Shown here: in pieces, positions 5,681-42,763 of the stretch
Numbering within the stretch: position 1 is the stretch's first letter
How the letters are laid out: every line of letters starts with the position of its first letter
Assembly: GCA_014360825.1 (NCBI GenBank)
Contig: JACIWT010000005.1
Location: 16,248-80,247, forward strand
Direction: 5' to 3'
Origin: Chloroflexota bacterium
Lineage (GTDB): Bacteria; Chloroflexota; Anaerolineae; UBA2200; JACIWT01
Length of the DNA stretch: 64,000 bases
The notes under the pieces: model-generated
Told to the model about the DNA's origin: nothing
Seen by the model: the letters and a program-made list of their open reading frames with translations, nothing else
The model's database searches: none
Program-made: the position numbers and the translations under genes

Positions 5681-7459
5681 ATGAAGCACACGAGGACCCT
5701 CGTCGCCTTGCCTCTATTGGTCAGCGCTGTTGCGACCGCCCTCATGCTGGCTCCCCTGTTCGCAGATTTTGCCCACCGCGCCGCCAACCTGGCCGGCGAT
5801 GCCTCGGAGTACATCTTCCGCATCTGGTGGTTCAACCAAGCCTTATTCCGCGAAGGCGTCTCGCCCTTCTACCACCCGCGCATTTTCTACCCCTACGGCT
5901 ATGCCCTGGGCCGTTCGGAGACCACCCTCGCTAATCTGACGCTGGCAACTCCACTAGCGCTCTTGGCAGGCGAAATCATAGCATACAATTCGTTGTTGGT
6001 GGCCTCCTGCGTTCTGAGCGGGTTTGGTATGTACCTGCTGGTGTACAGACTGACACGGGAACCAGTCGCCGGGCTGCTGGCGGGGCTGGCCTTCGCTTTC
6101 GCACCGACGCATCTGGCACACTTGGCCATGGGTATGATAGGCATTGCCAGCGTGCAGTGGCTCCCGTTCGCCTTTTTGGGCGTAGAGAGTATGCTGGAGC
6201 GCCGTGATGTGCGATCGGCGATCCTGACGGGGGTTTTCTACGCTTTCGCTGCCTTATCAGCCTGGTATATGGCTTTCATTGTCGGGATAGGACTGGTGTC
6301 CTATTTTCTGTTCCGATTGTGGGCACAGAGGAGGCGGTGGGATCGCACGCTGGTGATCCTGGTAGGATTGTTCGCCATCGTGGTCATCGTTTTGGTGAGC
6401 CCTGCCCTGGTGATGGCTTGGCGCACCCACTCGGAGATGACTCGTTCGATCTCCGTTGCCGATCACTGGGGCACTACTTTCCTCGATTTCGTCTATCCTA
6501 ACCCTCGCCATCCGCTCTGGGGATCATTTTTCCTGGCCCGGTACGATGCATTGACCCGTCGCGGCGACGCTTACCTGGGATTGCCGGTGTTACTGCTGGC
6601 CATTGCGGGATGGTGCTTGGGCAGGCGGCGAGAAATGTGGCCCTATCTGGCAGTGGCATTCTTGGGAGGCATCTTGTCGCTGGGCTTGACGTTGCACATG
6701 GCCAACGGTCGGTTGTATATCCCGGTGCCCCAGGCCATAGAGAGAGTGTTCACCGCGGGGATGGGTATCTTATCCCGAGACCTAGCGCTCAATGCCACGG
6801 CTACCTACTGGACGTTGCGCGTACCCGGGCAGATCTATATCCCGCTGCCGGCAATGCTGGTGTATCTGTTTTTCCCCGGCGGAAATGGGATGCGTTTCTG
6901 GCATCGGTTTGCCTTATTGACGGTGTTTGGGGTTTGCGTCCTCGCGGCGGTGGGGTTGGTTTATGTCTTGCGACGGGTGGAGAGCAGACGATGGCGCTTA
7001 TTGATAACGGTTCTCTGCCTGGGGATAGTGTTGTTCGACTTCGCCTGGGCACCAGGGATGTGGGGGGTGCAGTCACTGGCTCCACATCCGGCTGTGGTTT
7101 GGCTTGCTGAGCAACCGGGTGATTTCGCGATAATGAAAATGCCAGTAGAGGTGGCGCTCTGTGGGCCATCGCTCTATGAACTGGTGACCCACGGGAAGAA
7201 CATGGCCTATGGCTACGGGGCATTCTTCCCGCCGGAGTGGGAGATGCGCCGTTGGGCATTGGAGCGTTTCCCAGAAGAAGTATGTCTGGAGGTGCTGCGC
7301 GCCTGGGGTGTGCGCTACATACTCTTCTACCCAGGAGAGTATCCTGCGCTGGGGCTGGGGCCAACCCCAGACTTATCGGCGGTGGCGGGATTGCGACTGG
7401 TCAGGTCTTTCGGCGACGTGGAGGTTTGGGAACTCGTCGCCCAGCAGGTGGATAGTTAG
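5681..7459 (+). CDS. polytopic membrane protein, GT-C-type glycosyltransferase-like (YfhO/ArnT-like)
   Basis: 592 aa with more than 10 TM helices. The N-terminal periplasmic-loop region is rich in aromatic residues (IFRIWWFNQALFREG...FYHPRIFYPYGY). I could not match a specific motif, so the call rests on architecture. Confidence 0.45.
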   Translation: MKHTRTLVALPLLVSAVATALMLAPLFADFAHRAANLAGDASEYIFRIWWFNQALFREGVSPFYHPRIFYPYGYALGRSETTLANLTLATPLALLAGEIIAYNSLLVASCVLSGFGMYLLVYRLTREPVAGLLAGLAFAFAPTHLAHLAMGMIGIASVQWLPFAFLGVESMLERRDVRSAILTGVFYAFAALSAWYMAFIVGIGLVSYFLFRLWAQRRRWDRTLVILVGLFAIVVIVLVSPALVMAWRTHSEMTRSISVADHWGTTFLDFVYPNPRHPLWGSFFLARYDALTRRGDAYLGLPVLLLAIAGWCLGRRREMWPYLAVAFLGGILSLGLTLHMANGRLYIPVPQAIERVFTAGMGILSRDLALNATATYWTLRVPGQIYIPLPAMLVYLFFPGGNGMRFWHRFALLTVFGVCVLAAVGLVYVLRRVESRRWRLLITVLCLGIVLFDFAWAPGMWGVQSLAPHPAVVWLAEQPGDFAIMKMPVEVALCGPSLYELVTHGKNMAYGYGAFFPPEWEMRRWALERFPEEVCLEVLRAWGVRYILFYPGEYPALGLGPTPDLSAVAGLRLVRSFGDVEVWELVAQQVDS

Positions 7460-18639: not shown

Positions 18640-18844
18640 TGTATGGGTGAAACCTCCAGCGCAAAGTGAGTTTATTTTATCCGCGAGGCGGGTTTTCGGC
18701 AAGCAGGATAGGAGCGAGGATAGATGCAAGTACTCAGTGATTGGGGGGCTGGGGCGGACTGTCGCCTGCCCCAGCCCGAGTCCGACTACGGATAGTTGCG
18801 CAGCACCAGCGGCAGGCGGACTTGGAATGGCATGCTTGGCACAC

Positions 18845-20086
18845 CTACCTCATATCCAAACCAATAGCCCAAGCCGACCCCATGATGGGCGCTGGTCGAG
18901 GCTCCGATGGCCGATAATGCCCCTGTTCCCATCGAGTATACTCGTCGTACATCTCTGGAAGTGTTCTCCATTGTACCTGGCCGGATTGCACGTAAGGCTG
19001 AATACTCTGTAACCATCTCTCCAAGAGCATTATGTCCAAAGGCGAGCCCAGACTCCAGGAGACGTAGTAGATGTTGACCTGATCTGGTTCAGCGTACGAT
19101 AACGCCTCTTCCAACTGCCGGATGAAAGTATCAATATCCTCCTGCGTGAACTCACATTTGGTCACAGAGCGTTGAGGGGAAGAGGCCTCCTCTTGCATAC
19201 AGGCAAGCCCTCCACTGGACGGCAGGAGGGCTAGCCTTCCATTGGGATCGTGGGTCAACCAGTCGCTGCCGCTGTTCATCCGCCAGGGGTGGATGCGGTC
19301 TCTGAGATCAGTTGGGAAGGGTTGGTGACAGGCGGCCGGATTGAGGCAATTGCGGAATTGCGGAGGACGCTTTTCCGGTGGCAGGGACATCACAGCATAG
19401 GCTACCTGGCCGCTGGTGAAGAGATAGCCCGCGTCGGCGGCCGCGGTCACCCAGTCGCAATGGGAGACTATGCCAGAGACGTGCCGCACGGTCACGCCCA
19501 GCGATTCCAGTTGCTCTTTCCGCGCCCGCAGGTCGGCGGCAAAGCGGCTGCAGTCATAATTCCTCTCCCCGCCGATATCGGCATGGACACCAATGCCATG
19601 CCCGCGTTGTTCCATCTCCTTGAGGACGTTATCATTCCAACGCAGACAGCCGTCGGTGAACTCTTTGCTCTCCAGTGTCAGGCGCGCCCCGTAACGTTCA
19701 AAAAGGTCAGCGTATTCCCGCACATGCGTTGCATGGGCATTGAATCGAGCCTGATTCTCACCATCCGGCCAGCCCTCCAGATGCACCATGATTCCCAAGT
19801 ACAGAACTGCTTGACCCTCGGAGGGCGCAGAAACCGTCGCAGTCGGCGCCTGTACCGGCGTGGTAGCCTGTGCGGCACAGTCTGCCGGGCAGTTGCGGGG
19901 ATTCTCCGGCCCATTGCAAACCCCATCCCCACAGCGAGCACGAGGTGAAAATGTTTGCGTCTCTGAAATGGTTGGGAGTGGGGTGGGGGGTGATGTGGTT
20001 GGAGATATGGCCGGTAGCGCACAAGCGGTTATTAGCATAATGAGGATGAAGAGGGGCAATGTGCACTTCCACGGCTTGGCAAACAT
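18845..20086 (-). CDS. hypothetical lipoprotein, Cys-rich N-terminal region and a possible carbohydrate-deacetylase-like/TIM-barrel domain
   Basis: Lipobox LITAC and a PT linker. The domain assignment is weak (the HVSGIVSHCDW region). Confidence 0.45.
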   Translation of the reverse strand: MFAKPWKCTLPLFILIMLITACALPAISPTTSPPTPLPTISETQTFSPRARCGDGVCNGPENPRNCPADCAAQATTPVQAPTATVSAPSEGQAVLYLGIMVHLEGWPDGENQARFNAHATHVREYADLFERYGARLTLESKEFTDGCLRWNDNVLKEMEQRGHGIGVHADIGGERNYDCSRFAADLRARKEQLESLGVTVRHVSGIVSHCDWVTAAADAGYLFTSGQVAYAVMSLPPEKRPPQFRNCLNPAACHQPFPTDLRDRIHPWRMNSGSDWLTHDPNGRLALLPSSGGLACMQEEASSPQRSVTKCEFTQEDIDTFIRQLEEALSYAEPDQVNIYYVSWSLGSPLDIMLLERWLQSIQPYVQSGQVQWRTLPEMYDEYTRWEQGHYRPSEPRPAPIMGSAWAIGLDMR

Positions 20087-20146
20087 AGGGTTGGACCTCT
20101 TTGAGACGTTGGGCTGAGACGTCGCTTGTTTGCTTGAGTACTGCCG

Positions 20147-20189
<43 letters not shown>

Positions 20190-20240
20190 GCGGGCAGCTG
20201 CAGCGGGTGTTAGGCGGCTCTTTGAGGATGTATCCAAACT

Positions 20241-20477
20241 TCATGCTGGCGCAGGAGCCCTCTCCGTCAGGACCAAATTAACGACAGGAAGAGCTCTCAA
20301 CTCCAATTTTGATAGATCAATAAATTTGCTGGCATCCTCAATCTCAATCCCAATAACACGATTGTGCTCATCAAAGTCCAGCACAACCCCTGGTGCGATC
20401 TCCTCTGACTCGGTACTTACTCCTTCAATCAATTTGATATACAACATGTCGGTTTCAGGATAGTATTCGAAAATCAT
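20241..20477 (-). CDS. DUF2283-family protein (YuzE-like), antitoxin-like partner of DUF4258
   Basis: MIFEYYPETDMLYIKLIEG... is the DUF2283 fold. A GGAGAGGGGA RBS is present. The region is low-GC. Confidence 0.6.
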   Translation of the reverse strand: MIFEYYPETDMLYIKLIEGVSTESEEIAPGVVLDFDEHNRVIGIEIEDASKFIDLSKLELRALPVVNLVLTERAPAPA

Positions 20478-20490
20478 CGTCCCCTCTCCA

Positions 20491-20688
20491 TCAAGGCTTG
20501 AAGCGACGGTCGAAAAAAGCGTTATGCACGGTCTCTCCATCTGGTTCCGTCACGACCCGTAGATACTTGTCCATCTGGGCAACATATCCCCAATAACGGA
20601 TGCGTCCGTTGGCCTGCACTTCGGTGCGCATGGGATTCTTTAGAACGTGTTCAATCCACTCCATCTTGAGATAGGGTCGACGAGCCAT
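20491..20688 (-). CDS. DUF4258-family protein (toxin-like partner of DUF2283)
   Basis: MARRPYLKMEWIEHVLKNPMRTEVQANGRIRYWGYV... The ATG lies 13 nt after the rnhA stop. The ORF upstream overlaps rnhA. Confidence 0.55.
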   Translation of the reverse strand: MARRPYLKMEWIEHVLKNPMRTEVQANGRIRYWGYVAQMDKYLRVVTEPDGETVHNAFFDRRFKP

Positions 20689-20701
20689 AACGCTTCTGCT
20701 G

Positions 20702-21187
20702 TTAGGTGCGCTCATGTTCATAACCCATATCTGGCGGCAGGTTCTCCTGCGCAGCAGCTTGCATAGACAACTTGTCACAGCGCTCGTTTTCAGGATTCCC
20801 ATTATGACCACGTATCCAAACAAATTCAACATCATGTTGCTCACATAAATTTAGAAGCTTATCCCACAGGTCCGCATTCAAGGCCTTTTCTCTCTTATTC
20901 CTACGCCAACCATTCGATTTCCAGCGTTTTGCCCACCCCTCCATCATGGCATCAGCCAAATACTGCGAGTCTGTGTATAGGGTTACCTTACACCTTTCTT
21001 TGAGCGCACTTAACCCGACTATAGCTGCCATTATTTCCATGCGATTATTAGTTGTCAATCGAAAGCCGCCCGACAGCTCTTTCCGATGTTTGCCATATAG
21101 CAATACAACCCCATATCCACCAGGGCCAGGATTACCCAAGCAAGCACCGTCTGTGTAAATCACTACTCGTTTTAGTTCCTTGTTCAT
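20702..21187 (-). CDS. rnhA: ribonuclease HI
   Basis: All catalytic motifs are present ([44 protein letters not shown]). It is about 50% identical to E. coli RnhA by eye. The region is low-GC. Confidence 0.9.
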
Positions 21188-21206
21188 TTTGACTGGTAAA
21201 ACATCT

Positions 21207-21965
21207 TCAGACAACAACACCGTTTTCCTTAAAGTGATTTATCAGCTGGTATATCCGCTCAATATATTTTACGAATTGCCCAAGATTTGCAAGTATAACG
21301 CCCTTGTCCAAATCGGGCACGATTTGAGGATGACCAATCTCGTTTCTCGTAATTCTACAGAATTGAAACATTCCCCCAATAATAACATCCAGGTCTTGGG
21401 ACAGGATGCCGCTTGGTTTGCTCCTGCAACTTTGGTATGACCTTATGAACTCGTCATATTTTCTGGATATAAAGCGCCCATTCACTCTTGACAGAAACTG
21501 CTGTCTACTAGAATCATCCTGGATGGCGTCCCCGTATGTATGTATGAGTAGATTAATCGCACGCTCAGAGGCTGCACCTAGCATGAATGCTGCTGCTAGC
21601 AAAGCATCAGAACGCACACATCTAATGGACTCATCGATAAACCGTACAATCACGGGGTCGCAATCGGGCACGCGCTCTTGTATTGTCTGGGGGAACTTAT
21701 CTATTTCGAATGGTAACGCTTGGCCAGGAATTGCTCCCCCTGTCTCGATTGCGCTCTTCATCTCAGCAAGGAGAGTCTTCAGGGGGGAGTCTCTTCCCCC
21801 AAGAACGATTTTGCCGCTATTGTAAACACTCACATAGGCGGTTGTTGCCCCGCTTCTGACGGTTATTTTGTCACAGTATTGCTCTTCTTCGACAGAGAAT
21901 TCGAGTTTTTGTCTTTCAAGAAACGATACCACACTTTGAAATATGCTTGGTTCACCGACAGGCAT
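21207..21965 (-). CDS. hypothetical protein: N-terminal RNase HIII-N-like (DUF3378/TBP-like) domain plus a C-terminal HEPN-like domain (Rx4H); candidate abortive-infection/toxin nuclease
   Basis: The N-terminal [17 protein letters not shown] resembles the ITAYQSGKVLFQGK motif of the RnhC N-domain. The C-terminal [11 protein letters not shown] contains R-x4-H. The gene sits 19 nt upstream of rnhA and is co-directional in a low-GC island. A GGAG RBS is present. Confidence 0.55.
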
Positions 21966-22011
21966 TGTATCTCATCTCCATAGGAGAACTGACGAGCGCG
22001 CCTAACGGGAT

Positions 22012-22051
22012 GCCGCTCAGCCGCGCCGCCGAAGGCGGCGTCGGCTGGAGC
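22012..22051. repeat. GC-rich extended hairpin (core CGCCGCC-GAAG-GGCGGCG) within a GC-rich 160-bp patch inside the low-GC island
   Basis: GCTCAGCCGCGCCGCCGAAGGCGGCGTCGGCTGGAGC. It resembles the 23-bp palindrome at 23335 and may be REP-like. Confidence 0.35.
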
Positions 22052-22123
22052 GAGGGGTTGGGCGGCCCCACATTGGCCTTAGGCAACCGGTGATGCTATA
22101 TCGTTGGGGTTTGCCAGGACCTC

Positions 22124-22759
22124 TCAGCGCGATTTGATGTATTGCCCTGTCGTAGCATCATAAACATCGAAGTGGCCAAAGGATGTCTCAGCCAGCCAGA
22201 GCAATGAATAGCGCCCCAATTCAGCGTCTACATCTTCAAATAGATCGCTCGTTCTGAGTTCCAGACCTACCGATTGCAACTTGCGAAATTGTATCTCCGT
22301 TGAATCAACCCACCCTTCCAAAGCAAATAACTCGTCCGGTCGGATCGTCGCTATGTCGGATTTCACCAGTCTTGCCTTCCCCCCTTCCACATAGTATACG
22401 TTGGCTGTCGAGGACGTCTCATCTTTGGCGAAAATGACGACCCAGTGTGCCTGGTGCCCATCCGACCCAATACCGGGATCTTCCTCAACATCAAAAGGGG
22501 AACATCCCACATTGCAGAATTGCGACCAGCGGCCAACGAATGCCAGCCTCGCCGTAGCTTTCCACTCAGCCGGTAGGGCAGCATAAGCCAATGCAACCGC
22601 TTCTTTGGCACTCAACCGTTGCCCGGAAACAGATTGCACAGAGGATGTTAGCGTGGCCGGAGGAGGAGTTCCTCTGGATGGTAGATTAGAAGGCCGACCA
22701 GCACAGGCCGTCGCAATGAAGACCAACGCCAATAAGGTAAAGAAAGTTTGGGAACGCAT
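22124..22759 (-). CDS. hypothetical lipoprotein
   Basis: Signal and lipobox VFIATAC. No recognisable domain. Low-GC. Confidence 0.55.
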   Translation of the reverse strand: MRSQTFFTLLALVFIATACAGRPSNLPSRGTPPPATLTSSVQSVSGQRLSAKEAVALAYAALPAEWKATARLAFVGRWSQFCNVGCSPFDVEEDPGIGSDGHQAHWVVIFAKDETSSTANVYYVEGGKARLVKSDIATIRPDELFALEGWVDSTEIQFRKLQSVGLELRTSDLFEDVDAELGRYSLLWLAETSFGHFDVYDATTGQYIKSR

Positions 22760-22825
22760 TCAGTCCTCCTTAAAGGTACTACCCGTGATTTTTCCAGCAG
22801 ATAAGCCGCCCAACTATATTTTCAA

Positions 22826-22900
22826 CCGAAACGGCTTAAAATACATTTAGGGCGCGACGGTTTAACTATCCGAAAGCCGTTGTTAAACCGTCGGCTTAAC
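22826..22900. promoter_or_regulatory. cluster of inverted repeats in a divergent intergenic region: perfect 12-bp IR CGACGGTTTAAC-N15-GTTAAACCGTCG (22855-22893), plus an AACGGCTT/AAGCCGTT IR and GGCTTAA repeats
   Basis: Read directly. This is a candidate operator array or recombination site next to the integrase remnant. Confidence 0.45.
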
Positions 22901-23009
22901 CGCATCAAAAGCCGCAAATCGACATCTATACTATAAAATAAGTCATGGTGTTTGTCAAACCGAGGTCATCGCTGATGCGCTAATGCCAAGAGTTGAAAAG
23001 GAGTCAAGT

Positions 23010-23445
23010 ATGGCCTCCTCGCCGTTTCTCAATCGGGTTCGTCAGGTGATGCGGCTCAAGCACATGAGCCTCAGCACAGAAGACTCGTATCTCTACTATA
23101 TCAAACAGTTCATCCTCTTTCACAACAAACGTCATCCCAAAGACATGGGCGCTGACGGAATCCGCTTTCCGGCGGTCATCGTTCTGCCGAGCTGCGCACA
23201 GGCGTCATTCGCTGACACCGCCTTCACGGAGACGACATCCAACACGCGGTCAAACAAGCCATTCGCAAGGCAGGCATCGCCAAACACGGCCGTAGTTACA
23301 CCTTCCGCCACGGTTTCGCCCTCCACCTTCTGTAGGGGCGAAGCGGCGCTTCGCCCCTACGATATCCGCATCGTGCAGGAATGGGACCGCAAGGATGTGC
23401 ACACCATCATGATACACTCGCGTGCTGAATCGCGATGGCCTGGCG
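23010..23445 (+). pseudogene. degraded tyrosine recombinase (integron-integrase/XerD-like) remnant: N-terminal SAM-like domain fused to a C-terminal box II fragment, with a frameshift and loss of the catalytic Tyr
   Basis: The N-terminus VRQVMRLKHMSLSTEDSYLYYIKQFILFHNKRHPKDMGADGIRF matches the IntI/XerD N-domain. In another frame, IRKAGIAKHGRSYTFRHGFALHLL reaches a stop. Frame 0 then reads ALRPYDIRIVQEW..DVHTIMIHS (compare [23 protein letters not shown]). The middle roughly 200 aa are absent. Confidence 0.6.
23335..23357. repeat. perfect 23-nt palindrome GGGGCGAAGCG-G-CGCTTCGCCCC inside the integrase remnant at the frameshift point
   Basis: Read directly. It may be an inserted REP-like element. 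Confidence 0.45.
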
Positions 23446-23519
23446 CTGCGCAGCCCGCTGGATTAGAACTTTTGTTTTTCAGCGTGCTCTGTGGTATATT
23501 TCGCGTCAGGAGGATGAAG

Positions 23520-24089
23520 ATGCGAGAAGTACTCTTCGTTCACCAGTTGCCGAGTGGTCAGGTCATCCGCGTGGTCAAGGGCGACCTGACGGAAGAGCGG
23601 GTGGATGCCATCGTCAACGCCGCCAACGAGCATCTGGCTCACGGTGGCGGGGTGGCCGGGGCGATCGTGCGCAAGGGCGGGCCCGAGATCCAAGAGGAGA
23701 GCAACCGCTGGGTGGCCCAACATGGTCCGGTGCGCACCGGCACGGCGGCCATCACCGGGGCCGGGCGACTGCCGGCCCGATACATCATCCACGCCGTCGG
23801 GCCGGTGTGGGGGACGGGGGATGAGAAGGCCAAACTGGCCAGCGCGGTGCGCAGCGCTCTGCAAATGGCGGAGGATCACCGCCTTGCCAGCATCTCTATG
23901 CCGGGCATCTCCTCTGGCATCTTCGGCTTCCCGAAGGACCTTTGCGCCGAAGTGATGTTCGACGCCGTCCTCGAGTTCCTCGCTGAGCACCCCCAGACCA
24001 TACGCGAGATCAACTTCTGCAATATAGACGAACAGACGGCCAAGGTCTTCGCCGCCGAAGCGCGGAAAAGGTTTAAGGGCGTGGAATAG
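23520..24089 (+). CDS. macro-domain protein (ADP-ribose / O-acetyl-ADP-ribose deacetylase, YmdB/Af1521-like)
   Basis: VDAIVNAANEHLAHGGGVAGAIVRKGG...IIHAVGPVW...SISMPGISSGIFGFP. A GGAGGA RBS lies 6 nt upstream. The upstream part of the 22983 ORF is the integrase remnant. Confidence 0.8.
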   Translation: MREVLFVHQLPSGQVIRVVKGDLTEERVDAIVNAANEHLAHGGGVAGAIVRKGGPEIQEESNRWVAQHGPVRTGTAAITGAGRLPARYIIHAVGPVWGTGDEKAKLASAVRSALQMAEDHRLASISMPGISSGIFGFPKDLCAEVMFDAVLEFLAEHPQTIREINFCNIDEQTAKVFAAEARKRFKGVE

Positions 24090-39848: not shown

Positions 39849-40793
39849 TTACCGGGCGATGGAAGCGGCCATGCGGCGATAGGTGTGACGCCGACCCCGC
39901 ACGGCGATGGAAAAGGCGATGATGTTCTCCGGGTTGGCTACCCCAGCGTAACCCGCGTCGCCAATGTGGTGGATATCAGCACCGGTCATCTTGCTGAGCA
40001 AAGCGATGTGACGCACCGTCGCTACCTCTGCTCCCTCCTGGGAAGTGCCGATGGCGCTCAGGGCCAGTTTCCCCAACTGATGTGCCAGGTCCACCAGGGA
40101 TTTGATGGTTTCCAAAGTGGCCCCTGGAGTCGTGCCCGGGGCGGGCACCAGGACGATGTCCGCTCCCGCAGCGGCGAAACGGCTCACTGCCTCGGGGAAG
40201 GCGATATCCGCTGCCCCCAGACCCGCGCCGTGCATCTTCCCGGCCACCAGGATCACCCGATCCCCTACCGCCGCGGCGATCTCTCCAAGGGCCCGCTCGA
40301 TGGCCTCGACTGAGACGCCGGACCCCGGGTTGCCGGTGAGCACCAAGTAGTCGGCGCCCAGTTCTACGGCCCGCCGAGCGTTGTCCACAGTAGCCACCCG
40401 ACCCCGGTAGGCTTCGGTAACCCTCTCCGGGGGCACGGGCTCCAGGTTGATGCCCACTGGCCTGCCCACCAGAGCCTTGACCTCATTCAGAGTCACACCA
40501 AACCCGATGGGCAATGCTCCTAATAGGGGGAACTCCGGGAGGGCGGGGAGATTTCCCTTGCGGTAGCCCATCACAATGGGGTGCTGCACATCGTAGAGGT
40601 TGAGAGTGATAAGGTCGGCACCACAGGCAGCGGCTAACTCGGCGTTGGTCACGCCGTCTATCAGAGGCAGCGTGGTGCAGACCACCTCCGCGTTGATCGT
40701 CCGTCCCTCGGCCAAGCGAATGCTCTCCAGCAGGTCCGCCTTGCTCATGGCGCGGAAATCACTGGCAGTGGCGTCGAGAATTCGCTTTGTCAT
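39849..40793 (-). CDS. hypothetical TIM-barrel-like protein (possibly BtpA/PEP-hydrolase-like)
   Basis: 314 aa with an alternating beta/alpha pattern and Gly-rich loops (GNPGSGVS, AGKMHGAGLG). The family was not identified with confidence. Confidence 0.35.
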   Translation of the reverse strand: MTKRILDATASDFRAMSKADLLESIRLAEGRTINAEVVCTTLPLIDGVTNAELAAACGADLITLNLYDVQHPIVMGYRKGNLPALPEFPLLGALPIGFGVTLNEVKALVGRPVGINLEPVPPERVTEAYRGRVATVDNARRAVELGADYLVLTGNPGSGVSVEAIERALGEIAAAVGDRVILVAGKMHGAGLGAADIAFPEAVSRFAAAGADIVLVPAPGTTPGATLETIKSLVDLAHQLGKLALSAIGTSQEGAEVATVRHIALLSKMTGADIHHIGDAGYAGVANPENIIAFSIAVRGRRHTYRRMAASIAR

Positions 40794-40920
40794 ATCATGA
40801 CCTTTTACATATCTGGTACGTCTGCGGCAGATTTCACACTCAACGGCGCACCGGGCGTCTACGGCATCACTGTTCGAAGGTTTTTGATGCGCTCCATTCG
40901 TTATGCAGGGTGGTCGTTAT

Positions 40921-41862
40921 TCATTCCTCCCATTTCTGATAAGCCGTCCACATCACGTATCGGCGGCAAATTTCGCTTATAGGACACTCTCCGCAGTTTG
41001 GATGTATGTCGGTGCAGTAGCCGTCCTCAAAAAGATAAAACGCTCCGTTGTCAACGTAGAATGGAGTTAGTCCAGATTCGGCTACGATGCTCTCTACCCA
41101 AGGCCTCATTTTGCTTGCTTGGATGATATATGGTCGCCCCTTGTCGTATAGCACCTCTCCTAACAAACCAGTTCTACAGAATACCTTGCCCACATGCCCG
41201 TCAACTATCATCAGGGTCTCTTCCATTTTTGTCACTTTGCGTTTCCATACTTCATTAAGGAGAAAGACAACCCAATTAACGAACATTCTACATGCCTTTG
41301 GATCGTTTCCCACCCATCCCGCTTCAAGGACAGGATGCATATTGAGGAATCGGAAAAGACCAATCGGGTTTCCTTTCTTTAGGTGTTCCACAATAAGACT
41401 GGTGAGGTCTGAACTGTACTCATTCAGCCATCTGATAAATCCCTCATATGCTTTAAATCGATAAGCAAAAAGTGATATTGGCTTTATTCCTCCCAAAGCA
41501 CCCACTCTATACAGCGCAGCCCCCTTTTCACCAGCAACATCTTTGAAAACTTTGAACAGTTCGGATTCTGAAATCTTGAAGGGTTCAGATAATAGGGTGT
41601 CTGTAAATTCATATGATATTCTGATAGACATCTCTCTTACCTTTTCAAACTTTGCCTGTTGGTTAATCAGCACCCTCAAAAGTAAATACCTTAATACTTT
41701 TTCTTGCTCTTCTTTCTCAGTAGATAGCGGATTTAAGCCACTTGGAATAGCCATATGCTCTTTCCATCTCTCAAACCATTTCGATTTCCCTTGATTCTCA
41801 AATATGCTTAAGAGCTTCCCTGCTTGTTCATCTCGCAACTTTTCCTGTTTTTGTTTTGGCAT
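40921..41862 (-). CDS. hypothetical protein downstream of and overlapping the MTase gene; candidate cognate restriction endonuclease
   Basis: Low-GC, co-directional with the MTase, and overlaps it by 35 nt (or starts at 41754). A C-terminal C-x5-C-x2-C-x5-C Zn-ribbon-like cluster is present, but no known nuclease motif was recognised. Confidence 0.35.
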   Translation of the reverse strand: MPKQKQEKLRDEQAGKLLSIFENQGKSKWFERWKEHMAIPSGLNPLSTEKEEQEKVLRYLLLRVLINQQAKFEKVREMSIRISYEFTDTLLSEPFKISESELFKVFKDVAGEKGAALYRVGALGGIKPISLFAYRFKAYEGFIRWLNEYSSDLTSLIVEHLKKGNPIGLFRFLNMHPVLEAGWVGNDPKACRMFVNWVVFLLNEVWKRKVTKMEETLMIVDGHVGKVFCRTGLLGEVLYDKGRPYIIQASKMRPWVESIVAESGLTPFYVDNGAFYLFEDGYCTDIHPNCGECPISEICRRYVMWTAYQKWEE

Positions 41863-42763
41863 TTTGCACCACCGACCTTTGGTTTTTAATCTTTTTCTGT
41901 AAATGTGTTCTGAGATGTTTCGCATCATCTCTGATTATTATTTCCACTTCGTAATCATTCCCAAATAGTGAACTCTGTTTCAACCCCATTTTTTCCTTCA
42001 CGGTTTCGTATAACTCCAAATCAATTTCATAGCCAATGCTATTTCTTCCTAACATCGCTGCTACTTTGTTTGTTGTTCCAGAACCCATAAATGGATCTAG
42101 AACCGTTTCACCTGTGTATGAGAAAAGTTTAACAAGCCTGTAAGGGATTTCCTCAGGAAATGCTGCAATGCCCTCCTCAATACGATTTTTCAACGGTAGA
42201 ACATTGGTTATATTCCACATTGTCAGATACCACTTGTTTTTCTGGTACTCTTTGATATCAATTCTCGAATTTTCTTTGATTCCCTCGGAGACGCTTTTGT
42301 AATCGAACTTGCCATTCTGGAAAATAAGTATGGTTTCCTGGATATTGTCTGGGTAAAAATACATTGGATAGGGATGCTGTAGAACGACCCCGCTTCTTCT
42401 ACTTATGCGAATGTAGCCCTCTGGCTTCACCCATATAATTTTGTCACGATATGTAAATCCTTCCTCAATGTAGATCTTTGTAAGGTCTGCTACAACTGGA
42501 AACTTTTCGCCATGTATCAGAGTATCGTCGCACACGATACATACAATGCCTCCTTGTGCCATTACTCTTTTCAATTCACTCGCAACTTTTCGCATTTTGC
42601 TCAAATACGCATCGTAACTTTCAAAAAGATCGGGGTAATCAAAAGGAGCGTTGAAGTAGGGGGGACTTGTAACCACAAGGCGGACGCTACCATCTTGTAG
42701 TTCTTTCATATTCTCGCTGTCCCCAAATATCAGTTTATGTGATGTCTTTGCTTTCTCGCTCAT
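41828..42763 (-). CDS. type II DNA methyltransferase, beta-class (N4-cytosine or N6-adenine; DNA methylase N-4/N-6 family)
   Basis: Motif IV SPPY precedes motif I VLDPFMGSGTT. Low-GC. Confidence 0.8.
   Translation of the reverse strand: MSEKAKTSHKLIFGDSENMKELQDGSVRLVVTSPPYFNAPFDYPDLFESYDAYLSKMRKVASELKRVMAQGGIVCIVCDDTLIHGEKFPVVADLTKIYIEEGFTYRDKIIWVKPEGYIRISRRSGVVLQHPYPMYFYPDNIQETILIFQNGKFDYKSVSEGIKENSRIDIKEYQKNKWYLTMWNITNVLPLKNRIEEGIAAFPEEIPYRLVKLFSYTGETVLDPFMGSGTTNKVAAMLGRNSIGYEIDLELYETVKEKMGLKQSSLFGNDYEVEIIIRDDAKHLRTHLQKKIKNQRSVVQNAKTKTGKVAR

Follow-up and report, generated by a model that had tools for sequence, protein, structure and literature searches.

HEPN ribonucleases form dimers with a composite Rx4-6H active site and are common toxins and effectors of abortive infection (Abi) (PMC3710099). 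The Escherichia coli protein RnlA is organized as TBP1-TBP2-HEPN, its TBP domains most closely resembling the RNase H3 N-terminal domain, and has R255, E258, R318 and H323 as catalytic residues; binding of the substrate depends on the TBP1 domain (PMC8266594). In vivo, activation of RnlA after T4 infection needs RNase HI, an enzyme that stimulates RnlA and is associated with the second of its TBP-like domains (PMC5308261). Fusion of the HEPN domain to an RNase H-fold or a TBP-like domain is frequent in the RNase LS family (PMC3710099), and single-gene HEPN cassettes of the Vibrio cholerae integron protect against phage (10.1101/2024.07.02.601686). Integrons occur in Chloroflexi, and a cluster of attC sites lacking integron-integrase (CALIN) beside an intI pseudogene has been described, but makes up a minority of cases (PMC4889954). 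Here, a stretch of 64,000 nt (64 kb) from a Chloroflexota metagenome-assembled genome (MAG; contig JACIWT010000005.1), hereafter referred to as a whole as the window, was analyzed with emphasis on a low-GC block in which the gene for a 252-residue protein stands immediately upstream of a gene for RNase HI (rnhA).

The block is the remains of a degenerate chromosomal integron, comprising an intI pseudogene and two captured gene cassettes, and the 252-residue protein and RNase HI are encoded by the second of these. In the reading favored here, whose chances we judge to be about even, the degenerate integron bears a cassette that pairs a compact RnlA-like RNase effector with an RNase HI partner of its own. 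The module so formed is likely a portable anti-phage or toxin module. An earlier, sequence-only reading had described a horizontally acquired island of defense type. Of this description, acquisition is supported by the data presented below, the defensive role is argued from context, and what had been a vague “island” is recast, for this Chloroflexota MAG, as a decayed integron with precise limits.

Remains of a chromosomal integron

The low GC content on which the earlier description was founded was evident both in windowed GC and in GC at third codon positions (GC3). Overall, the block stands at 44–52% GC, compared with about 58% for the window. Segments of 400 nt fell to a GC content of 0.42–0.50 across ∼20200–23200, with ∼0.60 on both flanks. 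The block at 20241–23009 has a GC content of 0.484, compared with a mean of 0.576 (standard deviation 0.035) for equal-sized segments of the 64 kb, 2.4% of which are as low. GC3 is 0.46–0.58 in the cassette genes and 0.63–0.81 in the flanking genes.

An integrase remnant is located at 23010–23466 on the plus strand and matched Phage_int_SAM_4 of Pfam with E 7.9e-11. Residues 15–60 of the remnant matched the NCBIfam integron integrase TIGR02249 (E 1.9e-9), a partial match that consequently lies far under the family cutoff, and the IntI equivalog PRK15417 (E 9e-8). The N-terminal ∼55 residues are intact. Three-frame translation of 22980–23540 revealed that the central two-thirds of intI are gone, including the segment for the IntI-specific additional domain near patch III, and that box II and the C terminus are split over three frames into the pieces ‘HGRSYTFRHGFALHLL’, ‘YDIRIVQEW..DVHTIMI’ and ‘YTRVLNRDGLALRSPLD*’. 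An ALRSPLD-type C terminus is retained in the last of these, which we take to resemble the GVRSPLD end of IntI1. Given that the centre is deleted and the C terminus lies in three frames, the integrase gene is a pseudogene; the block contains this remnant and no functional integron-integrase gene. Between the box II fragments, at 23332–23360, the remnant harbors a 29-nt perfect palindrome, GTAGGGGCGAAGCG-C-CGCTTCGCCCCTAC, possibly a small repeat element whose insertion contributed to the inactivation of intI.

The intI remnant is transcribed away from all five cassette open reading frames (ORFs), which occupy the minus strand, as in the canonical integron layout. Between the remnant and the first cassette lie a Pc-like sigma-70 promoter and an attI-type core. 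The promoter (22958–22930, minus strand) has the form TTGACA-17-TATAGT, agrees with the consensus at 11 of 12 positions, is directed into the cassette array and was the joint best-scoring candidate of the region scanned. The core, GTTGGGC (22808–22814, minus strand), was recognized by direct reading of the sequence where cassette 1 starts and shares the pattern GTTRRRY with the R′ boxes of both attC sites. The conservation of attI sites is too low for modelling.

Imperfect palindromes of the form RYYYAAC...GTTRRRY were found after the lipoprotein-like gene of cassette 1 and after the DUF2283 gene of cassette 2. The first, attC-A (22000–22063, minus strand; R″ GCCCAAC ... R′ GTTAGGC), is canonical and separates the two cassettes; the second, attC-B (20146–20215, minus strand; R″ GCCTAAC ... 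R′ GTTGGGC), is distal and closes cassette 2. Both were scored with a covariance model (R2) built solely from attC sites of other loci, the sites of the window being excluded; R2 replaced an earlier model that contained the window's own sites and was circular for the window. With R2, attC-A scored 52.4 bits (E 9e-11) on the minus strand, as compared with 10.6 bits for the plus strand. Its DNA hairpin gave a z score of −3.7 against shuffled sequences, with T and G each bulging as single bases from the bottom strand. The corresponding score for attC-B was 21.5 bits (E 0.0035, minus strand), compared with 43.7 bits for the model that had included it, and its DNA folded as shuffled sequences do (z about 0); attC-B is probably decaying. 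No further attC site or third cassette was detected by the covariance model beyond attC-B, near the 413-residue gene that follows it or in the rest of the 64 kb. A relaxed scan for NNNNAAC...GTTNNNN combined with pairing and folding energy was discarded as non-specific, returning 90 matches against 87 in reversed-sequence controls.

An integron or CALIN calls for at least two attC sites of the same orientation within 4 kb, and these are present here; the cassette ORFs are co-oriented with attC and divergent from intI, with the candidate attI and Pc in between. In IntegronFinder terms, the element is a two-attC cluster (CALIN) beside an intI pseudogene. The decayed tyrosine recombinase and the inverted repeats that the sequence-only reading had placed at the bounds of its island were thus both recovered, not as the edges of a generic island but specifically as intI and the attC/attI sites.

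Cassette 1 consists of an orphan lipoprotein-like gene (22124–22759, minus strand) that is preceded by a strong AAGGAGG ribosome-binding site and ends at attC-A. Its 211-residue product has a signal peptide with a lipobox-like N terminus and no Pfam, NCBIfam or PADLOC family. Cassette 2, which ends at attC-B, comprises four genes on the minus strand, namely the 252-residue gene, rnhA, a small ORF and the DUF2283 gene. The gap between the first two is 19 nt and that between the last two 13 nt. As an ORF of 76 residues (20491–20721), the small ORF overlaps rnhA by 20 nt; counted from its second ATG (65 residues), it is separated from rnhA by 13 nt. The tight spacing reported in the sequence-only reading is therefore reproduced, together with the intact RNase HI, the lipoprotein-like ORF and the macro-domain gene further out.

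The last two genes had been read as a DUF4258/DUF2283 pair. For the 78-residue product of the distal gene (20241–20477, minus strand), the assignment to DUF2283 was upheld (Pfam E about 3e-18 to 5e-18; 66 bits against a cutoff of 23). The partner product has no NCBIfam or PADLOC match and no Pfam match, DUF4258 failing to appear even at E ≤ 10. Its homologues fill more than 3000 clusters at 74–94% identity, again with no Pfam model, and the only link to DUF4258 is the UniRef name of one homologue (83% identical), which reads ‘DUF4258 domain-containing protein’.

Nucleotide comparisons revealed that cassette 2 is composite. Positions 20256–20700 of the window are 83.8% identical to the Rhodothermus marinus plasmid pRMAR01 (L113, 75298–75778), where the 76-residue ORF and a gene annotated as DUF2283 are adjacent amid other toxin-antitoxin genes. 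Given that pRMAR01 is a plasmid of a different phylum, an identity of ∼84% points to recent cross-phylum transfer of this pair. Positions 20698–21247 are 86.7% identical to the metagenomic or MAG loci L114–L117. The two blocks join exactly at the RNase HI stop codon, and the attC site of L114 (6517–6578, E 4.5e-5) starts at the point that matches this junction. Cassette 2 most likely arose from one cassette carrying the 252-residue gene, rnhA and attC and another carrying the 76-residue ORF, the DUF2283 gene and attC, with loss of the intervening attC. The four-gene operon that the sequence-only reading had treated as a unit is a mosaic in which two independent modules, each of two genes, have been joined. 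The 76-residue ORF and the DUF2283 gene are a putative toxin-antitoxin pair that would act independently of the first module, probably in the manner of an addiction system. Addiction-type modules stabilise cassette arrays.

The 252-residue TBP-HEPN protein and its family

The 252-residue protein is encoded at 21207–21965 on the minus strand. That it has no obvious family, as had been stated before, was borne out by scans of Pfam, NCBIfam and PADLOC, in which the best matches were DUF4443 (E 0.014) and Csx1 (E 0.035); ten distant relatives sampled were likewise without a family in these scans. Homologues were found in 381 clusters at E ≤ 1e-3, and the best 120 of these are mostly ∼253 residues long and 58–87% identical. 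The best homologues are annotated as hypothetical proteins in MAGs of Chloroflexota, Planctomycetota, Gemmatimonadales and Dehalococcoidia. Across 26 diverse members, R207, N208, E209, G211, H212 and P213 are invariant, as is a FM.GAASE motif. The stretch R207-N-E-x-G-H212 constitutes the Rx4H signature of HEPN proteins, with the usual polar residue after the arginine.

The AlphaFold2 model of the protein, with a predicted local distance difference test score (pLDDT) of 86.8, comprises an alpha/beta domain at residues ∼1–75, in which four strands lie between two helices, and then a helical domain at ∼85–250. In structural searches, scores of 7.4, 7.2 and 7.3 were obtained with RnlA, LsoA and RNase H3 (4py5, TBP-like N-terminal domain), respectively, and scores of 6.9 and 6.6 with phosphoglucomutases. 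The C-terminal domain of phosphoglucomutase has a TBP-like fold, and the search does not show which of its domains was aligned. With Foldseek, the sole high-probability full-length match in the Protein Data Bank (PDB) was RnlA in the RnlA-RnlB complex (6y2p_B; E 4.6e-3, probability 0.99, 278 columns), and the best match in a viral library was an ‘RNaseLS-like protein’ of phage (probability 1.00). A sequence search of the PDB with the family profile returned sub-threshold TBP matches only (E 0.4). The all-alpha fold and the conserved Rx4-6H motif place the C-terminal domain in the HEPN superfamily, and a TBP-like domain ahead of HEPN is the arrangement of RnlA and LsoA. Given that RnlA is TBP1-TBP2-HEPN, the 252-residue protein is, by its model, a one-TBP version of the RnlA architecture and a predicted ribonuclease. 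The earlier interpretation of this protein as an RNase-HIII-N-like domain joined to a HEPN-like domain is in agreement with this assignment.

The HEPN domain extends beyond the family itself. An exhaustive profile search identified 1108 representative clusters that share it, and in hundreds of clusters (P0123–P0270) the HEPN half (∼80–253) is found behind other, unrelated N termini of ∼100 residues. None of ten such clusters sampled has a Pfam domain. The family belongs to a wider HEPN clade that is unannotated and whose N-terminal ‘sensor’ domains are swappable.

Related loci were sought with two peptide patterns, so that all locus counts given here are lower bounds, and their genes were called by a crude longest-ORF procedure. 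A scan of 185,579 species genomes yielded at least 31 loci, whose proteins are 45–73% identical, in Chloroflexota, Verrucomicrobiota, Acidobacteriota, Gemmatimonadota, Nitrospirota, Planctomycetota, Myxococcota, Desulfobacterota, Alpha-, Beta- and Gammaproteobacteria as well as in two archaeal MAGs; another 80 loci came from a scan of metagenomes. At least 17 of ∼108 loci have a co-oriented attC site within ∼150 nt of the gene (L008, L015, L016, L017, L039, L045, L055, L060, L061, L067, L072, L090, L091, L093, L103, L104 and L106). These loci derive from Gamma- and Betaproteobacteria, Planctomycetota and metagenomes and represent at least five clades of the family tree. The attC sites often stand on both sides of the gene, within longer arrays, and several were absent from the training of the model. 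Because attC sites flank at least 17 loci, the 252-residue protein family is a recurrent integron cassette.

Other members have defense-type neighbors, which include a type I HsdR and a YgjP-like gene (one clade, 11 loci), AbiL-like AAA ATPases, SieB, a ThsB-like TIR protein, mads, AriA and PglX-/BrxH-type (BREX/DISARM-type) genes; a few neighbors are housekeeping or phage-tail genes. The HsdR clade (L009, L025, L065–L081; e.g. L068, 1448–7969) has a fixed synteny, with HsdR and a YgjP-like metallopeptidase fragment upstream and a 387-residue protein without family and a 304-residue HTH protein downstream. A locus of this type may be a larger composite defense locus.

Linkage to RNase HI and its interpretation

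The gene directly downstream of the HEPN gene, rnhA (20702–21187, minus strand), encodes a type 1 RNase HI of 161 residues. Its product matched Pfam RNase_H with E 1.6e-44 (152 bits) and scored 206 bits against the NCBIfam equivalog NF001236, for which the curated cutoff is 160. Its identity to E. coli RnhA is 52%, and the DEDD(H) residues D10, E48, D70, H124 and D134 are invariant in the alignment of the two. As judged from these sequence features, the cassette RNase HI is canonical and catalytically intact.

In at least seven loci, comprising L001, L003, L005, L055, L061, L088 and the window, rnhA is the immediate same-strand downstream gene; the rnhA of L088 is cut by the contig end. The window aside, there are five complete pairs and one partial pair among the 86 loci with enough downstream sequence. 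Three more HEPN-rnhA pairs (P0002/P0273, P0004/P0278 and P0005/P0280) are suggested by contigs of equal length among the closest matches. The linked members occupy at least three places in the family tree, the order of the two genes is constant, and their spacing is 19–86 nt. Outside the integron context, the hosts of the pair belong to Chloroflexia (L001), Anaerolineales (L003) and Dehalococcoidia (L005). Across the 108 loci, rnhA excepted, no conserved partner gene was found outside single clades.

The loci L055 and L061 encode a HEPN protein 61–62% and an RNase HI 59% identical to those of the window. One attC site lies upstream of the HEPN gene and a second overlaps the end of rnhA; given that attC sites bracket both genes, the two form one cassette. 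In L061 (1107–1649), the rnhA ORF runs into attC and gains a C-terminal extension of ∼20 residues that is encoded by attC. In L114–L117 (∼5976–6578), an rnhA gene 90% identical to that of the window is preceded by what is left of the HEPN gene, its last 13 codons, and followed immediately by attC. Since these codons and attC remain, L114–L117 represent a former pair that lost its HEPN gene. The surrounding defense island includes a MmeI/Eco57I-type enzyme, DUF4268, a SNF2 helicase, HigBA and two integrases; rnhA is here a cassette relic outside any visible integron.

Recurrent linkage in other lineages, together with the published dependence of RnlA on RNase HI (PMC5308261), argues for a functional link between the 252-residue protein and RNase HI, and the suggestion in the sequence-only reading that the first gene may act with RNase HI gains in substance. 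RNase activity, toxicity or a defensive function, and partnership with RNase HI are properties that we infer for the module, which might operate as follows. The HEPN protein would be a dormant RNase of the abortive-infection or toxin type. A trigger, for example phage infection, would bring about the canonical HEPN dimer, whereupon RNA would be degraded and the cell or the phage arrested. Like its counterparts in RnlA and RNase H3, the TBP-like domain would bind substrate or RNA:DNA hybrids, and the co-encoded RNase HI would be a dedicated partner in the role reported for host RNase HI with E. coli RnlA. An RNase HI of its own could allow the cassette to work where host RNase H is absent or incompatible, and the single-gene cassettes of the family, which are the majority, would either depend on factors of the host or work by themselves. 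As far as sequence goes, RNase HI could exert its control either as an activator or as a restraint.

A more specific proposal is that one cassette carries a self-contained two-component system against phage (abortive infection), consisting of the TBP-HEPN protein and RNase HI, the latter serving as dedicated activator or licensing factor; we advance it tentatively, as a possibility rather than an expectation. If true, the dependence of E. coli RnlA on RNase HI would be an instance of an ancient and widespread TBP-mediated partnership of HEPN and RNase H, and several hundred solo members of the family would be unrecognised defense genes that exploit host RNase H.

Several observations weigh against the favored reading. 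The structural similarity scores are modest, the hhalign comparison of the family profile with E. coli RnlA gave a probability of 0.3%, and no RnlA, LsoA or RnlB match was obtained from Pfam at E ≤ 0.1. Given the empty hhalign comparison, membership of the RnlA family by sequence was rejected. No defense model of PADLOC-DB 2.0 matches, the RNase HI and the two small genes being without any PADLOC match at all, and it is for this reason that the term defense is used here on grounds of context. Searches of plasmid and phage collections with tblastn returned one distant plasmid match and no phage match, and attC-B is a weak site. The biochemical basis of the RnlA-RNase HI tie is itself disputed, RnlA needing no cofactors for its activity in vitro and part of the pull-down evidence having drawn criticism (PMC8266594). 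The cassette RNase HI cannot be told from an ordinary housekeeping enzyme, being 77–78% identical to an rnhA located between pheST and a glycosylase gene. Lastly, more than 90% of family members (∼80 of the 86 loci) have no rnhA neighbor, and RNase HI is therefore not an obligatory encoded partner.

The last two points would be expected if the HEPN protein were a self-sufficient single-gene Abi or toxin cassette and RNase HI a passenger without any partnership, derived either from a separate cassette fused after attC loss or from a gene beside which the HEPN gene repeatedly landed. The many single-gene cassettes with attC on both sides (e.g. L008, L016, L072, L090, L091 and L106) accord with such a passenger, and cassette fusion is evident in the window itself, between rnhA and the 76-residue ORF/DUF2283 module. 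We nevertheless regard this explanation as unlikely. A passenger would be one gene among thousands, yet rnhA recurs in the same place on at least three branches of the tree, always on the same strand and within 86 nt; no other neighbor family recurs beyond single clades; and the pairs of L055 and L061 are bracketed by intact attC sites with no attC remnant between the genes. Furthermore, the only studied protein of such architecture depends on RNase HI in vivo (PMC5308261).

A further difficulty for the favored reading is that the pairs of L001, L003 and L005 stand among housekeeping genes with no attC site nearby. The L001 pair is directly upstream of a gene for a 5′-3′ exonuclease, another primer-removal enzyme; L003 has ABC transport and isochorismatase genes as neighbors, and L005 has MoaA and a metallo-beta-lactamase gene. 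Such settings would suit a Chloroflexota housekeeping operon for nucleic acid metabolism (e.g. of R-loops, primers or RNA turnover), in which the resident RNase HI is aided by the TBP-HEPN protein; the copies in integrons would then have been captured secondarily. This is in our view quite improbable, given that so few loci were found in the species genomes, scattered over phyla and diverged in sequence, and that the flanks of the pair are wholly different among the three Chloroflexota genomes. Cassette and defense-island contexts dominate elsewhere, the pair in the window has a foreign composition, and L114 kept rnhA with the HEPN gene deleted. That same retention of rnhA in L114 would also fit an antidote that is harmless alone, the reverse being common as well, and RNase HI might accordingly be imagined to restrain the HEPN RNase, by removal of a hybrid activator or by direct binding. 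The TBP-like domain would then sense RNA:DNA hybrid, and activation would follow once RNase HI had been overwhelmed, or had been lost, in the course of an infection. The two genes resemble rnlA-rnlB in their tight spacing and in their order, toxin ahead of controller; RNase HI has been reported to be necessary not only for RnlA to be activated but also for RnlB to repress it (PMC5308261), and the TBP-like domains of RNase H3 bind RNA:DNA hybrids (PMC3710099, PMC8266594). Of all the explanations considered, this one appears the least probable: most members are without an encoded RNase HI, which is evidently tolerated, and nothing in the data points to hybrid sensing. We know of no case in which RNase HI acts alone as an antitoxin.

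The locus provides independent genomic evidence for a functional tie between RnlA-like HEPN RNases and RNase HI that has hitherto rested on one E. coli system, and a minimal two-gene unit of ∼1.3 kb in which this tie is testable. The family also contributes to a picture in which integrons store compact defense genes.

Surroundings of the element and comparison with known systems

The macro-domain gene (23514–24089; Pfam E 8e-41), which the sequence-only reading had counted with the block, has a host-like composition (GC 0.64, GC3 0.81) and is located past the integrase remnant; it is therefore outside the low-GC block and the element. It matched DarG of PADLOC with an E of 0.0035 only, and no DarT partner is present, the next gene being a convergent ABC-transporter/peptidase gene. 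Given the lack of a DarT partner, the macro gene adds no evidence of defense, and a DarTG-like or defense module was rejected on composition, position and the missing partner. A 38-nt direct repeat (20032/23500) considered as the ends of the element is 71% identical, lies inside coding sequence and was treated as a chance match. The first gene beyond attC-B (18845–20086) encodes a 413-residue lipoprotein-like protein without family, has a host-like GC content of 0.576 and is followed by a GC-rich hairpin at ∼18760–18800; it may belong to the chromosomal flank or represent a third cassette whose attC has been lost. A second, deeper low-GC island was observed at ∼40750–42750 (GC 0.38–0.41), with two overlapping minus-strand genes at 40921–42763. 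One encodes a 311-residue N6/N4 DNA methyltransferase (Pfam N6_N4_Mtase, E 6e-46) and the other a 335-residue protein without family that has a Cys-rich C terminus; they are probably an acquired type II restriction-modification pair.

The closest described systems are those of RnlA and LsoA (the anti-T4 RnlAB and LsoAB). In common with these proteins, the 252-residue protein has a TBP-like domain followed by HEPN with an Rx4-6H site; RnlA is its top full-length structural match, the context is one of defense and mobile elements, and a tie to RNase HI has been reported for RnlA (PMC5308261). By contrast, RnlA has two TBP-like domains in 357 residues, whereas a single one is present here in 252, and there is no detectable sequence homology to RnlA or LsoA. 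Directly downstream there is no RnlB-type antitoxin gene; RNase HI occupies this position, followed by small genes of which one matches DUF2283 and the other has no match. For RnlA the RNase HI is supplied by the host, whereas in a subset of the present family it is encoded beside the toxin and borne on an integron cassette.

The fusions described by Anantharaman et al. (2013) are built from the same modules and were proposed to act on RNA in RNA:DNA duplexes (PMC3710099). They differ in that a caulimovirus-like RNase H domain is fused to the protein, whereas here a separate, canonical rnhA gene is found, and the HEPN domain of the 252-residue protein has no sequence match to the RNase LS family of these authors. 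In RNase H3, a TBP-like substrate-binding N-terminal domain is joined to the RNase H catalytic domain; here, such a domain is joined to HEPN, and its binding of hybrids is putative.

Small HEPN proteins carried as cassettes are also known from Taranis and Esos of V. cholerae and from the ‘Integron cassette HEPN’ of PDB 3jrt (10.1101/2024.07.02.601686; PMC3710099), and for some of them protection against phage has been demonstrated by experiment. The N-terminal domain of the 252-residue protein differs in being TBP-like and not AbiJ_NTD, and the protein has no Abi_C match in Pfam. The present family also differs in its environmental hosts of many phyla and in the addition of RNase HI to some of its cassettes. 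With the CALINs and degenerate integrons of Cury et al. (2016), the element shares clustered attC sites, two or more in number, and an inactivated intI nearby (PMC4889954). It is set apart by its very short length, with two attC sites, one of them decaying, and one four-gene cassette made of two fused modules. Every component is thus of a known kind, be it the degenerate integron or CALIN, the HEPN cassette, the TBP-HEPN architecture or the association of RNase H with HEPN. What appears to be undescribed is a family without a Pfam, NCBIfam or PADLOC 2.0 model, its status as a cassette across phyla, and the two-gene form in which it is packaged with rnhA.

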